The translations under genes were made by a program, and so were the position numbers. Below are positions 18,842 through 51,731 of a stretch of DNA of 64,000 nt, piece after piece. The stretch lies in the NCBI RefSeq assembly GCF_964213995.1, contig NW_027590160.1, forward strand, positions 806,001 to 870,000, in the 5' to 3' direction. Source of the DNA: Mustelus asterias (Eukaryota). Numbering within the stretch: position 1 is the stretch's first letter; the number at the start of each line of letters is the position of its first letter. A model generated the notes under the pieces. The model made no database searches. It had not been told where the DNA came from and worked only from the letters and a program-made list of their open reading frames with translations.

Positions 18842-18880
18842 AGTCTTCGTACAGGTTCAGCCCTGCTCTGTGTCTCTCTG
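18842..18880 (-). promoter_or_regulatory. Degenerate 23-RSS of TCR V pseudogene
   Basis: CAGAGAG - exactly 23 nt - ACGAAGACT; the heptamer has lost the essential CAC. Confidence 0.7.
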
Positions 18881-20118
18881 GGACGCAGTGCACAGTAATA
18901 CACCCCGGAGTCTGCCAGCTCCGTTTTAGGCACGTTCAGCGGGCCAGTGCGTGTTGTATCATTGAGCTCCAGTGAAAAACGGTCCCCTGGGGATCTCTGT
19001 CTGTCCTCGCTGAATCGATATCTCAACAGTAGATATTCCATGGAGCCGCTAGATTACTGACGGTCCAGAATAAGTAAGGAGTGTTGCTTGAAGTTGAATA
19101 ATTAGCGAACAACTGAACATCATCTCCTTCAGTGATTGTAACTGCAGCCGGTGCCTGTGAAACAGAATCTTCTCCACAATATTCTGTATGAACTCAAAGA
19201 AATATTAAACTAAATAAAGAGACTTCATTCTGTCCCCATGCCATCACCAACCCCCCCCCCCCCCCCCCCCCCCCCCCCACCCCTGAATTAGCCGTCAGCT
19301 TGAACAACAATCGCAGAGATAAATAACGCAGTTCAGCGGCTGGAGCGGGAGGTGCTTGCGGTGATTAAATAAAACTTCCATCATAAACATTCTATTTTTT
19401 CTAACGAGATCAGGTCCTCACCTTCAGTCATGGGCAGCACGGCGGCACAGTGGTCAGCACTGCTGCCTCACAGCGCCAGGGTCCCGGGTTCGATTCCCGG
19501 CTTGGGTCGCTATCTGTGTGGAATCTGCACGTTCTTCCCGTGTCTGCGTGGCTTTCCTCCGTGTGCTCCGGTTTCCTCCCACAGTCCAAAAGACGTGCTG
19601 GTTAGCTTGATTGGCTGTGCTAATTTGCTCATTATTGTCAGGGGGATTAGCCGGGTAAATATGTGAGGTTACGGGAATAGGGCTTGGGTGGGATTGTGGT
19701 CTGTGCAGATTTGATGGGCCAAATGGCCTCCTTCTGCACTGTAAGGATTCTATGATTCTATGATTCAGTCCCTATAACTGGAAACTGCTCACGGTCTGTG
19801 TGTTTGATGTTTGCCAAAGTCATTCACTGGTATCAGAGGAGCTTGAATCTCAGCCCAACTCATTCTCTCTCATTCCCAGGGGGAAATGAGCCGAATCCCA
19901 ACTGTGCAGCGTTGAGTCCAGCGAGACCCAGACAACATTTCGATGTTGGGACCAATCCATTCCCTGATCACCCACCCCTCCCCCTTGCATTGAGCGAACT
20001 GCTGACAGAATATAGTGAGTGGTTACGATGTGTAACACAGAGTTGAGCAACTTGCGCATTTATCGGTTAAAAGAGCTGCTGCTGCTGTGAGGAGTAAATA
20101 CAGAGTAACAGGAGATAT
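18881..20118 (-). pseudogene. TCR alpha/delta-type V pseudogene (leader 20064-20118, V exon 18881-19183)
   Basis: EDSVSQAPAAVTITEGDDVQLFANYSTSSNTPYLFW / (Y)RQ*SSGSMEYLLLRY...DRFSLEL...ELADSGVYYCALRP; first Cys lost, 1-nt frameshift, stop codon; leader ISPVTLYLLLTAAAALLT has ATA for ATG and AT for the GT donor. Confidence 0.88.
19432..19766 (+). mobile_element. HE1-type tRNA-derived SINE, full length, in the V pseudogene intron
   Basis: A box CAGTGG, B box GGTTCGATTCC, core GCACGTTCTTCCCGTGTCTGCGTGG, CR1-like tail (GATTCTAT)n. Confidence 0.9.
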
Positions 20119-20580
20119 GTTTGCACAGAGCTCGCGGCGGATTTGACCAGAGCTGATTGAAGCTGAAGTTGTTTTAGTCAAGAGTTGGCAAGATGACTCA
20201 CATCCAGGCCCATGTTGACCGTCATCAGATGACATTCAATCGGCTTCTAGTTCCTTTGTTCTTCAATGCAATGATCTCACAGCTCCTTTATCTGCAATTC
20301 ATCCTATTGGCGGAGAGATGAAAGAAACAAAGTGAATTTGGTCATCCAACGACAGAGGATTGCTTTCCTCTTCAGCTGTCACTTCAGCAACCGACTGATC
20401 CCCTGTGTCTTGATGGCTCTGTTCTGACATGGAGAATGACAATATCCATCCTTACAGCAACATGGCAAGCAGTTAGTTATTAATCATGTTTGGGATAGCA
20501 GCTATGGTGCGGGGGAGGATGATTGTTTTTAGTTCAAACATCTACTTCACCAGAAGTGATCGAGTAATGAATGGTCTGAG

Positions 20581-21089
20581 CAGTGGCGGATTAACCATTA
20601 GGCTGAGTAGGCTTAAGCCTAGGGGCCCGGAAGGGAGGGGGGCTCGAGAGCAAAAAAAATCACTAACTGTTCAGGTGAGCGTTCATTTTTCGGCACTGAA
20701 GAGGATCAAAATCTATTTGCGCTCAACAATGAGCGAAGAGAAACATAGTCATCTGGCACACATGCACATTGAATCAGACATGCTTCGATCTGTTGATTTA
20801 CATGCTGTTATCGACACTTTCGTAAACGAAAAAACACGGAAGTTTTTTAAAAGTACAAATGTAAAGAAAACGAAAAATAAATGAATAAAAGGGCTGTAAT
20901 TGATTCATATAACATTATGATATTATGTATGTAATACATTATACATAGTACAACGATGTAAGTTATCTAACGTCACTTAACGTCACTTTATTCTATTCAA
21001 CGAAGGGTGGGGTAGGGGACAGGGGGCAAGGTCAGGGGGCTTTACTAAAGCTCAGCCTACGGTTCCGGGTGGTAGTTAATCCGCCACTG
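20581..21089 (+). mobile_element. Non-autonomous hAT (Tip100-like) DNA transposon
   Basis: Perfect 15-bp TIR CAGTGGCGGATTAAC; 8-bp TSD GGTCTGAG at 20573-20580 and 21090-21097; internal GERSF/SALKRIKIYLRSTMSEE dimerisation-domain remnant. Confidence 0.92.
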
Positions 21090-21739
21090 GGTCTGAGATA
21101 TTTCCAAATGATGTTCCCTCAATTTGTAACTTTGCAGTATGTGAAATCCTTTTTTCGGAGTGGAAGTATAGCTTGCCACCCCATTGTACTGCTGATCCAA
21201 AAGATGCCAAAAAGGAAAAAGCAGCAAAGCTCAACATCGACAATAAAATCTCTAACAAAACAGCACAGGTGAGACTGATCAGAGTTAGAACGGCACAGGA
21301 AAGCTGTGGGCGGGAGCTAACATAGGCAATGTGGTCATAGGTAGGATTTATCTGCAAAGAGCTGAACTCAATAACAATGTCACTTGGGTAATTCTATAAC
21401 TTTGCCTCTCTTTAAGAGCGGCAGTCGAATGTTCATTCCATACTGCGGACCAACGGATTCGCACCAGGAGTGTCAGGATTAGTAAATGATTCAAGACAAA
21501 GCGAAATCTTCATCAGCGATATGGATGGAAAGCTGGACCGCCGAGCAGCCAGATTGGAGAGGTTTGAATGAATCTACAATGTAACAGAAGAAGCATTAAA
21601 TGTTTACGTTAAAGACTAGGAAATGGAAATGGGCATAGTTGTCATAAATCAGTAAAGGATCAGTCAGGAACACAGAGGCAGAGAAAGGCGTGGAAAACCA
21701 CTTAATGTATCTCAGATCGATTGATCAATCTTATATCAA

Positions 21740-21895
21740 TTAGGTTGATTGGCCATGCTGAATTAACCCGAGTGGAAGGGGGATTATCAAGGTAAACTTG
21801 TGGGGTTACGGGAACAGGGCCTGGTTTGGATTGTGGTCGGCGCAGACTCGATGGGTCGATTGGTCTCCGTCTGCACTGTAGGAATTCTATGAGTC
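21740..21895 (+). mobile_element. HE1 SINE 3' fragment
   Basis: TTAGGTTGATTGGCCATGCT...CTGCACTGTAGGAATTCTATGA. Confidence 0.75.
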
Positions 21896-22163
21896 TACAA
21901 CCATAAGTTACGTGCATCAATTAATGTAACTGTGCAACTGGACACACCAGTTACTGTTTTTGTGATAAGAGATATGGATTCATTTAACCTGCACTTCCAT
22001 CGGAGAAAGGAAATAACAAAGACACCACAGCAATGCTGCGGGATCAACGGAACCAAAGAGACTTGCATAGAATTGAAAACTGTGCGGTCATGCTGCAGTT
22101 CTGAATCAGGTTTTGAAGAACTACAATTGTGGTCATTGAAACCCTATCTTAGAATATCTTTCA

Positions 22164-49760: not shown

Positions 49761-50239
49761 GCTGCCGTGTCTCAGGCTGTACTCACCTCACTTCCTTGCT
49801 TTTCCATTGGTGCTGTGAGGCCGGCAGATAGCAAAGAGAATCACCCCGAGCTGCATTACAGTCACTATTCTTGCAGAGAAAATGCTTCCCGAATTATCCA
49901 CCGGAGTTGGGGAAGGAACACCTTCACCTTAATTGTACTAAAGAAAGTAAATATTTTTTGAATGAGTTTGTCACTTTGTTTTCATGGATTTTGCTCCACT
50001 ATTTGCTCCAGTGAAATTCCTCTCACGGGCTTTAATTATTATTAATATATGAAGTAATGTTCGCGTTACTGGGAAGTCTAGATTTCAACTCCATTCCTAA
50101 TTACCCTTGAGAAGGAGAGGGGGTGTGCAGGTTCTTAAACTGCTGTGGTCTCTCGGGACTATTAATATGGTGAAAGAGGATGCGTAGCACATCTAGCTTT
50201 TCCAGTAATAGAAAGTTCCTCCCGGTGCTGCTGTTTCAT

Positions 50240-50456
50240 CCCAAACTCCAAAGATGTGCAGGTTAGGTGGATTGGCCAAGCTCACTTGCCCCTTAGTGTC
50301 GCAAGATGTGTGTGTAGGTTAGGGGGATTAGCGGGCTGAATATGTGGGCTTCCGGGGATAGGGCCTGAGTGGGATTGTTGTCGGGGAGTCGGTGTAGGTT
50401 CAATGGGCCAAATTGCCTCCTTCTGCACTGTCGGGATCCAATGTTTCTATGATATT
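50240..50456 (+). mobile_element. HE1 SINE 3' part
   Basis: TCCAAAGATGTGCAGGTTAGGTGGATTGGCCA...CCTCCTTCTGCACTGT. Confidence 0.8.
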
Positions 50457-50842
50457 CAGGCAAGAAGATTTGAAAAAATGGAAAAGCATTGACTGTAGGA
50501 ACCTGCAGCCGACATTGGAGCATGGTCATTGTCGCATCACACGTCACTATAGGTAAAACACTCCAGTGTATTCTACCGTTCTGCTCTCAATGTTGAAAAT
50601 GTTTTAAAGGCGAATGTTTTATTGAGAATGTCAATATCGAGACTGAGCTGCCGACCAGTGCTGTTGCTGAGGAACTTTTGGTCATAGTTCCGTAGATGCC
50701 TATTCAAGTAGCTAATTTTGGTTGATTTGAACTGGGTTGCAATCATTAATGTCCATTTATGTTAGGTATGAAAGTAAGTATCTGGCATATATTCACTGAG
50801 AGTGAGTCAATAACCCAATGCTGAAACTCGAGTAAAGCTGAA

Positions 50843-50856
50843 ACGCCCTCTGGTGG
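50843..50856 (-). promoter_or_regulatory. CTCF motif upstream of the intact V
   Basis: CCACCAGAGGGCGT. Confidence 0.5.
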
Positions 50857-51659
50857 CATTGATTCGAATTATGTGCCTCAACGTTCCACTTCTCCCTGAG
50901 AGATTGCACAGGACTGTGTTGCGGTGTGGGAGATCCTGATACTTGGACAGCGTGCCTCGTGCAGTGGGGAAGAGAATTATATTTTACTCTGAGAGATTTG
51001 GTTTGAAGCGCAGATTGGACACAAGGATCGATATCCATTTTGCCTGATGGGGAAAGGAGTTTGGCAAAGTGATAATTTGTTCATTTTTTATTCAAGATTT
51101 ATTTTAAAAATTCAGAGAACATTTTACAGAAACGTTTTTTTAAAGTTCACAGAAGGGAACATAACAATTGATTTTCATATTGAGAACAGAGCACGTGTGC
51201 TCTGAGCTGCCCAATATATCTACAGCTGTAACAGACACCAAAATCGGAAAACAGGAGCTCAACATAAAAAAAAGGAAATAATTGTGTATGTCGCGAAAAG
51301 ATGAAAACAAAACATTGATGTTGCAAGCATCTGTCGCCAGAGGCTCAGCAATGTGCAATGTAAGAGAAGTCGAACTGGCTGACAAACTGTCCTCCAGATT
51401 CCCACTTCATGGGAAATTGAAATGAAAGGTCGTTTCACAAATCAATCCTCGGCAATGGGAAAGAAGAGCAAGAATCCAACTAAACTTAAACCTGGTTCGC
51501 TGGATCCAGAGTGCTCACAGTTAGACCAGAAAACTGACAACATAGCAGTCGGCTTCAAATGGTCGCTCAAAGCAATTGACCCACTTGTTGTTCCTCCCAC
51601 ATTGAATGAAGGAGGTCACATACTTTGAGTGACTATTTGCATCTGGCGGCTCTGTTCCT

Positions 51660-51731
51660 GGTTAAGTGGTGTGATGGTGAGCATTCTGGACTCTGAATTC
51701 AGTAATACGAGTTCAGATCTCGGTTAAACGT
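51660..51731 (+). pseudogene. tRNA-Gln(CTG) pseudogene (mirror at 61388-61459)
   Basis: TGGTGTGATGGTGAGCATTCTGGACTCTGAATTCAG..CGAGTTCAGATCTCGG. Confidence 0.75.

Follow-up and report, generated by a model that had tools for sequence, protein, structure and literature searches.

How do T-cell receptor (TCR) V segments come to lie among tRNA and 7SL genes in a shark genome? We addressed this question for a 64-kb window of the houndshark Mustelus asterias (C128:806001-870000; C128 is an unplaced 1.085-Mb contig of a 3.68-Gb genome). Proteins labelled as coming from this species are 99-100% identical to segments of the genome. TCR alpha/delta V segments, all on the minus strand, are interleaved here with RNA polymerase III (Pol III) genes. 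Scaffold C71 (20.4 Mb) was the main scaffold used for comparison, and most other copies were found on unplaced contigs. Judged by its sequence, the window is probably one copy of a V/tRNA/7SL block that was amplified by segmental duplication, with V segments and Pol III genes as co-passengers, and the delta locus of the same genome appears to have been turned into miniclusters. This multi-cluster delta locus, reached by mapping J and C genes, would be the larger result; it is held back by assembly uncertainty, and its expression is predicted.

One intact V gene among Pol III genes

The V segment that we call V1 has all the parts of a gene: a leader exon (49684-49639) followed by GT, an AG acceptor, an open V exon (49539-49231) and a recombination signal sequence (RSS) of the form CACAGTG-23-ACAAAAACT. 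Its V exon encodes a V-set domain with the Cys, Trp and Cys residues (Pfam V-set, E 6.5e-13), and the protein is 52-65% identical to cartilaginous-fish TCR V proteins. V2 is disrupted by stops and frameshifts and has the RSS CACACTG-24-ACAATAAGC. V3 carries one frameshift and one stop, and CAC is gone from its heptamer (CAGAGAG-23-ACGAAGACT). An earlier note on this DNA had described three co-oriented TCR alpha/delta V segments with 23-type RSS. The shared orientation and the intact gene stand; the three signals do not, and only V1 retains a predicted working 23-RSS.

ARAGORN called 12 tRNAs in the window (8 of them within 18842-51731) and Rfam 11, while blastn found 22 tRNA-like places. The tRNA-Glu at 30747, tRNA-Leu at 32405 and tRNA-Ile(TAT) at 40949 scored 55-56 bits and, with the 7SL gene, bear out the intact genes that the earlier note had placed among the V segments. 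The tRNA-Gln in its list has to be taken out: the copy at 51659 scored 29.5 bits and the good one at 55523 (68 bits) is beyond the 18842-51731 stretch. Many tRNA pseudogenes were seen as claimed, in the form of degenerate Asn, Glu, Lys, Val and Gln copies. The tRNA-Gln copies ride on tandem and inverted 0.7-3.5 kb repeats at varied stages of decay (window 51290-63100).

Related blocks elsewhere in the genome

We found large parts of the window in other places. C71:16.47-16.54 Mb aligned to it with 90-99% identity in kb-long pieces, and C87 was 99-99.7% alike. The best 40 of 139 candidate 7SL matches were all 97-100% identical, each located on C71 or an unplaced contig; they fall on 21 contigs, of which 17 also have a V match. 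Among the matches listed, those of tRNA-Glu (best 40 of 674), tRNA-Leu (best 40 of 507) and the G-protein-coupled receptor (GPCR) gene of the window (best 125 of 5894) were mostly on the same V/7SL contigs, with some on C21, C23, C73 and C75. V1-type matches, scored genome-wide for the best 150 of 1765 candidates, included 22 spread over C71 between 6.5 and 17.4 Mb (among the matches listed, 14 on the plus and 8 on the minus strand) and others on dozens of unplaced contigs. V, tRNA, 7SL and GPCR genes were likely copied together in blocks of tens of kb, and the near-identical copies on many contigs differ by deletions, through which V-tRNA contacts are created or lost.

One such deletion lies at the closest contact between a V segment and a tRNA gene. 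As the earlier note had observed, a tRNA-Glu stands about 430 bp from an RSS, that of V2 (429 bp to its nonamer). The alignment to C71 skips 19.7 kb at window 45437, and the two halves of the junction are 18-20 kb apart in six paralogs. The junction was absent in 6 of 7 paralogs read directly. Among 23 close copies of the V2 end (identity at least 92%), the RSS continues into the tRNA-Glu flank in three, on C128, C87 and C513. The C71 counterpart of this tRNA-Glu retains its Leu partner, which argues that the window's form of the junction is the derived one. Compared with the intact copy, this window tRNA-Glu carries a single G>A, which would leave C opposite A in its anticodon stem. Position relative to V is not kept among paralogs: contact occurs in 3 of 23 copies, and V3 is missing from the C71 paralog.

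Two other origins were rejected. RAG did not make the window deletion; the breakpoint, which shows a T microhomology of 2-3 nt, lies some 70 bp past the nonamer. Duplicons of tRNA size did not carry the V segments either, as homology among the window tRNA-Glu copies stops about 110 bp before the V2 RSS. The earlier note's suggestion that V segments spread as passengers on tRNA duplicons comes close: they were likely copied together with tRNA genes, in blocks of tens of kb in place of tRNA-sized duplicons.

Constant genes and J-alpha arrays

A shark TCR constant query gave 19 strong exon-1 matches in the genome, 19 paired transmembrane (TM) exons and two weak matches. The C, hinge and TM exons were open in all 19 strong copies. 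Exon 1 occurs in 14 distinct sequences, which form 8 groups 1.4-10% apart, and some pairs are 0.05-0.6% apart. Three copies are in cis on C71, at 7.14, 11.04 and 12.27 Mb. All 19 have the exon-1 signature CLASDFSP, which is of the TRDC type CLxxxFxP and not of the TRAC type CLxTDxF (types as given in PMC10322711). Identity to a catshark delta-type C was 47/91 for the delta C, compared with 22/76 and 17/68 for two TRAC genes. On the strength of the signature, the D/J anatomy and the catshark identities we take the 19 copies to be TCR-delta C genes. The same three lines of evidence led us to reject their assignment as C-alpha, the label ('alpha chain') of the query's source. PDB searches did not separate alpha and delta C, and the PF09291 profile (TCR alpha C) was uninformative, with no match in the genome and none in controls either. 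Other sharks gave single delta-C-like models among 25 matches, which are representatives clustered at 50% and hence no copy count.

The exon-1 changes between delta C groups are mostly amino-acid changing (16-19 vs 5-6 silent codons, two main clades), roughly in neutral proportions.

The two weak matches are TRAC genes, 74% identical to each other. They are preceded by J arrays with 34 J motif matches on C71 (18.37-18.41 Mb; region to 18.43 Mb) and 133 on C546 (137-242 kb). On C71, the interval from 12.27 Mb to the J-alpha array (18.37 Mb) gave no TRDC match. Upstream of J-alpha on C546 there is a D-like remnant and a 200-N gap, which could hide a TRDC. The canonical translocon layout, a single TRDC directly upstream of J-alpha and TRAC, is not what this assembly holds. 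Both TRAC types occur in runs X2 and X3, as paralogs or deep alleles.

Organisation of the delta units

A delta D (where complete, with a 5' 12-RSS and a 3' 23-RSS) lies 12-22 kb upstream in 18 of 19 TRDC; the contig of the 19th ends before that point, and C973 has an extra D. NAR-TCR V segments are co-oriented 16-58 kb upstream in 15 of 19; of the other four, two lie on contigs that are too short and two have no NAR V. Seven clusters were read across the J region, and each of these has 3-5 J motif matches. The upstream regions of 8 of the 19 clusters were read for their anatomy (10 kb only for C96). Six of these eight contain the NAR-TCR cassette, that is NAR V-D-J and then a supporting V-delta, upstream of delta D-J-C (defined in PMC12227049 and PMC6795676). 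The fullest order, NAR V-D-J, supporting V, pseudo-V, two VH-like V, D, five J matches and C, was found at C71:7.1, C71:12.27 and on C181. The units are therefore repeated V-D-J-C sets, each with its own C and, unlike the one-V one-J immunoglobulin heavy-chain (IgH) clusters, with several V and J. Near-identical C genes can have different upstream anatomy: C71:11.04 and C138 are without the NAR V found in their closest relatives.

Germline V-D or D-D joints with the anatomy of coding joints were present in 5 of the 8 clusters. On C119 (553370-554050), C436 and C96, which form a divergent group of three copies, a supporting V is fused to the 3' end of the delta D and the D's 23-RSS is retained. 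This joint must be old and germline, because it is identical in copies 1-7% apart. At C71:11.02 Mb a broken conventional V (pseudo-V) is joined to the delta D. The joint on C138 (217380-218800) is of another kind. It comprises an intact IgM-type VH, the 12-RSS of IgM D1, 13 of 14 D1 bases, three G and 11 delta D bases, and it continues into the delta D 23-RSS, J and C. The IgM D1 3' RSS has a spacer of 22 and the delta D a 5' 12-RSS, so the join obeys the 12/23 rule. Delta D matches without their 5' side numbered 7 of 19; they include C850 and C401, both outside the eight clusters read.

Two further arrangements were noted in these regions. At C71:10999006-10999290 a VH-like exon runs straight into a JH motif, apparently a germline-joined IgH VDJ. 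Behind supporting V-delta segments, two or three 23-RSS are stacked at 61-bp spacing (e.g. C71:12229725-12229860).

Assessment of the proposed history

On balance we lean towards a houndshark TCR-delta locus that has left the translocon. It would consist of about ten expressed, self-contained miniclusters reshaped by RAG in germ cells, with an inherited IgM-VH/TCR-delta chimera, and the V/tRNA islands would be amplification debris. Segmental duplication would have carried V, tRNA, 7SL, GPCR and zinc-finger genes together and would also have multiplied the delta unit. The delta locus would have become a series of Ig-style miniclusters composed of NAR V-D-J, supporting V, optional VH-like V, D, 3-5 J and C. 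RAG acting in germ cells would have joined segments in advance at the delta D on three or more occasions, one of which placed IgM VH-D1 onto delta D-J-C, and each delta unit would rearrange independently in gamma-delta T cells. As for V1, it would serve as a distant V like any other of the scattered segments, most simply with J-alpha, if C128 is in cis with the J array like its C71 paralog.

Several points weigh against this history. Sixteen of the 19 delta C copies are on unplaced contigs, some 0.05-0.6% apart, with three in cis, and some of the copies may be second haplotypes or false duplicates in the assembly. The two TRAC genes could be deep alleles. The C138 joint is on one contig only. 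The delta copies were read from DNA, and their expression and rearrangement are predicted; the same applies to cis use of J-alpha by V1, whose contig is unplaced and gave no TRDC or TRAC match. Finally, V segments and tRNA genes coincide on C71. Of 26 stretches chosen there by position, 4 had both, none V only, 3 tRNA only and 19 neither (Fisher p 0.002, with small n, non-independent duplicated blocks and 6 of the 26 stretches picked near TRAC). Such co-occurrence may leave room for a functional or an ancient link. In humans, too, tRNA and olfactory-receptor genes lie near TRA/TRD (14q11.2), so that the neighbourhood would be an ancient one.

It is possible, and in our view unlikely, that the window V segments are orphons, i.e. 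block copies beyond any usable locus, with V1 intact owing to the youth of its copy. Two of the three V segments are pseudogenes, copies 92-100% identical to V1 occur in at least 8 other places, and no TRDC or TRAC match was found on the whole of C128. As the earlier note had stated, no J or C is visible: apart from a J-like motif at C128:752682, which stands without V or C context, there was no J motif or C match in the window or in the flanks read, which add up to 200 kb. Against orphons, the C71 paralog of V1 (92%) is co-oriented and in cis with the J-alpha array, 1.9 Mb upstream of it, and a whale-shark gene model joins a V of V1's family (58% to V1) to J and C. Scatter over megabases is moreover the published layout of shark V segments: according to PMC12227049, elasmobranch TCR alpha/delta V occur in either orientation across megabases, interspersed with IgM clusters and NAR-TCR V. 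The scatter as such is already in print (Table S1 of the same source).

Improbable, by comparison, is a role for the Pol III genes themselves, in which tRNA/7SL islands would be kept near scattered V because TFIIIC/Pol III binding opens their chromatin or bounds it against zinc-finger and GPCR arrays. Genes for tRNA can act as insulators. In line with such a role, tRNAs were present in 4 of 4 V-bearing and 3 of 22 V-free C71 stretches. On C128, a single island of roughly 45 kb takes in every V match and 12 of the 14 tRNAs of a 264-kb span; zinc-finger arrays adjoin it on one side. Density in the window is also above background, with 12 ARAGORN tRNAs compared with none in 16 10-kb stretches of other chromosomes; on C71, 5 of 20 evenly spaced 10-kb stretches held 12 tRNAs. 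Neither outcome that the earlier note had named as refuting its reading came about, given this density and the J-alpha array in cis with the C71 paralog of V1. Over all 157 stretches of the region, 7 had both V and tRNA, 24 V only, 10 tRNA only and 116 neither (p 0.046, with few cases and paralogous blocks being counted repeatedly).

The remaining evidence speaks against a role of this kind. The closest contact is the deletion junction described above, with a V pseudogene on one side and a tRNA with a mismatched stem on the other, and none of 30 short V loci had a tRNA within 1.5 kb; intact Pol III genes do occur near V segments, at 2-20 kb. V-rich delta clusters are tRNA-poor (38 V matches, in which a broken V may be counted twice, and 4 tRNAs in 52 stretches), and the TRAC/J-alpha regions gave 1 tRNA call in 25 stretches. 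On C23, one of two stretches holds all 4 tRNAs, and there is no V in either. V islands and tRNA islands are often found in the same block, and V segments need no tRNA island. The proposal of the earlier note that Pol III genes serve as accessibility or insulator elements for V is weak now that its key contact proves to be a deletion junction found in 3 of 23 copies; the co-occurrence on C71 stays. The interleaving of V and tRNA genes is real, likely for the most part a by-product, and co-duplication appears to explain it best.

The number of delta loci depends on how the copies are counted. Three in cis give the floor per haploid genome; with two alleles per locus, 19 copies would make about ten loci, which we consider likely. 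DNA contig depth was higher for the delta exon than for each alpha exon (38-130 vs 12-19 in X2, 7-15 vs 6 in X4 and 16-20 vs 4 in X5); since contig depth does not measure copy number and the source sample may itself be X2, we take this as weak agreement. Run X1 had no coverage of the delta exon, which counts neither way. That the multiplicity is largely an artefact of unpurged haplotypes and false duplications, with few real delta C genes, is at least as improbable as a role for the Pol III genes: the unplaced contigs, the pairs less than 0.6% apart and the likeness of window and C87 speak for it, and the three copies on one scaffold, the 8 groups, the 14 distinct exons, the unlike anatomy upstream of near-identical C genes and, for what depth is worth, the X2 values speak against it.

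Further features of the window

The features of the window are collected in the table. The GPCR gene is a 7tm_1 receptor as the earlier note had it, and its naming as GPR139-like was not confirmed: GPR139 was absent among 60 of 86 PDB matches, and the best were weak matches to melatonin, opioid and muscarinic receptors. Its family, with 5894 candidates at first look, forms arrays on C71, C23, C73 and C75. C2H2 zinc-finger arrays (79 motif matches) occupy C128:900-970 kb, on one side of the V/tRNA island. Between V1 and V2 lies the 3' piece of a CR1-type long interspersed nuclear element (LINE; window 47063-48600), 98-99% identical to a copy beside V3 (17067-18198). Further LINE fragments are at 11945-14633 and 29342-30565.

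Table. Positions of V segments, Pol III genes and other features in the 64-kb window
Feature	Position	Strand	Evidence or remark
Single-exon rhodopsin-family GPCR, very large amplified family	7802..8758	-	7tm_1 E 3.7e-23
V3, TCR alpha/delta V pseudogene with one frameshift, one stop and CAC lost from its heptamer	18842..19172	-	without counterpart in C71 paralog
Fourth V-like segment, weak 5' fragment (28 bits)	20359..20415	-	beside alignment break to C71
tRNA-Asn-like pseudogene	22164..22229	+	Rfam, blastn
tRNA-Glu-like pseudogene	23755..23822	-	blastn, sequence reading
7SL (signal recognition particle RNA) gene, full length	28208..28505	+	Rfam 243.9 bits
tRNA-Glu(TTC), intact	30747..30820	-	ARAGORN, Rfam
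tRNA-Leu(AAG), intact; half of repeated Glu-Leu pair	32405..32488	-	ARAGORN, Rfam
Degenerate tRNA copies (34680; 35280 Lys; 38317 Val; 39938 Asn)	34680..40012		ARAGORN, Rfam
tRNA-Ile(TAT), 21-nt intron	40949..41045	+	Rfam, sequence reading
tRNA-Glu(TTC) copy, one anticodon-stem change	45004..45077	-	Rfam; 429 bp from V2 nonamer
Junction of 18-20 kb deletion relative to six paralogs	45435..45439		about 70 bp beyond V2 nonamer, not at heptamer
V2, TCR alpha/delta V pseudogene, 24-bp-spacer RSS	45506..45860 (5' end approximate)	-	sequence reading
V1, intact TCR alpha/delta V gene (leader, intron, V exon, 23-RSS)	49191..49684	-	sequence reading, Pfam
tRNA-Gln copy array, mostly degenerate; best copy 55523-55596	51659..61460		ARAGORN, Rfam, blastn

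Relation to known receptor systems and significance

Cluster layout and germline joining are taught as hallmarks of shark antibody genes, and shark TCR is described as a translocon, in reviews as one locus of mammalian type. Horn-shark blots of the 1990s reportedly hinted at several TCR constant genes. A search of literature listings that did not extend to the text of Criscitiello 2006 and 2010, Ott 2021 and Deiss 2019 showed no paper about multiple TRDC in sharks or about tRNA genes lying between their V segments.

The closest description is that of the elasmobranch antigen-receptor complex (PMC12227049). It shares the scattered V with the houndshark and differs in its delta C: TCR alpha/delta is called a translocon there, and Table S1 has one delta C beside one alpha C model in stingray and catshark, whereas here 19 delta C each head their own unit. 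The word 'tRNA' has no occurrence in the available part of that paper. Shark IgH miniclusters (PMC6795676, PMC2193156) are alike in their repeated V-D-J-C units with an own C and in some copies pre-joined in RAG fashion, and germline RAG joining is known for shark Ig (PMC2193156). The units described here differ from them in being TCR-delta, with several V types, 3-5 J per unit and one IgM D-delta D joint.

Outside the sharks, marsupial and monotreme TCR-mu (PMC7615758) is likewise a delta-derived TCR with two V domains, in repeated clusters with their own C and a germline-joined supporting V. It is, however, a separate mammalian locus with the supporting V fully joined, whereas the shark has a NAR-TCR/TCR-delta unit with a V-D join only. 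Newt TRD (PMC12698447) also has more than one delta C, and delta not directly upstream of J-alpha; it comprises two TRDC-J-V clusters, compared with 19 copies in this assembly, and is without NAR-TCR or IgM fusion. Trans-rearrangement of IgH V to TCR-delta and TAILV (summaries in PMC12227049 and PMC6795676) resemble the C138 joint in placing an Ig VH on delta D-J-C. They are, respectively, a somatic event and an Ig-like V of the locus, whereas on C138 the IgM VH-D1 is pre-joined in assembled DNA.

The near-identical paralogs with and without an adjoining tRNA are a natural experiment for the insulator idea. If this shark does have many TCR-delta miniclusters, cluster and translocon layouts would interconvert inside one antigen-receptor region, and the houndshark would offer a living parallel to the mammalian TCR-mu clusters. 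It would also raise the question of how one of about ten delta loci gets chosen by a T cell. The IgM-D/delta-D joint, if true, would be a snapshot of the entry of Ig V into TCR loci, and the inherited chimera would fix in the genome a trans-rearrangement that nurse shark T cells are known to make.

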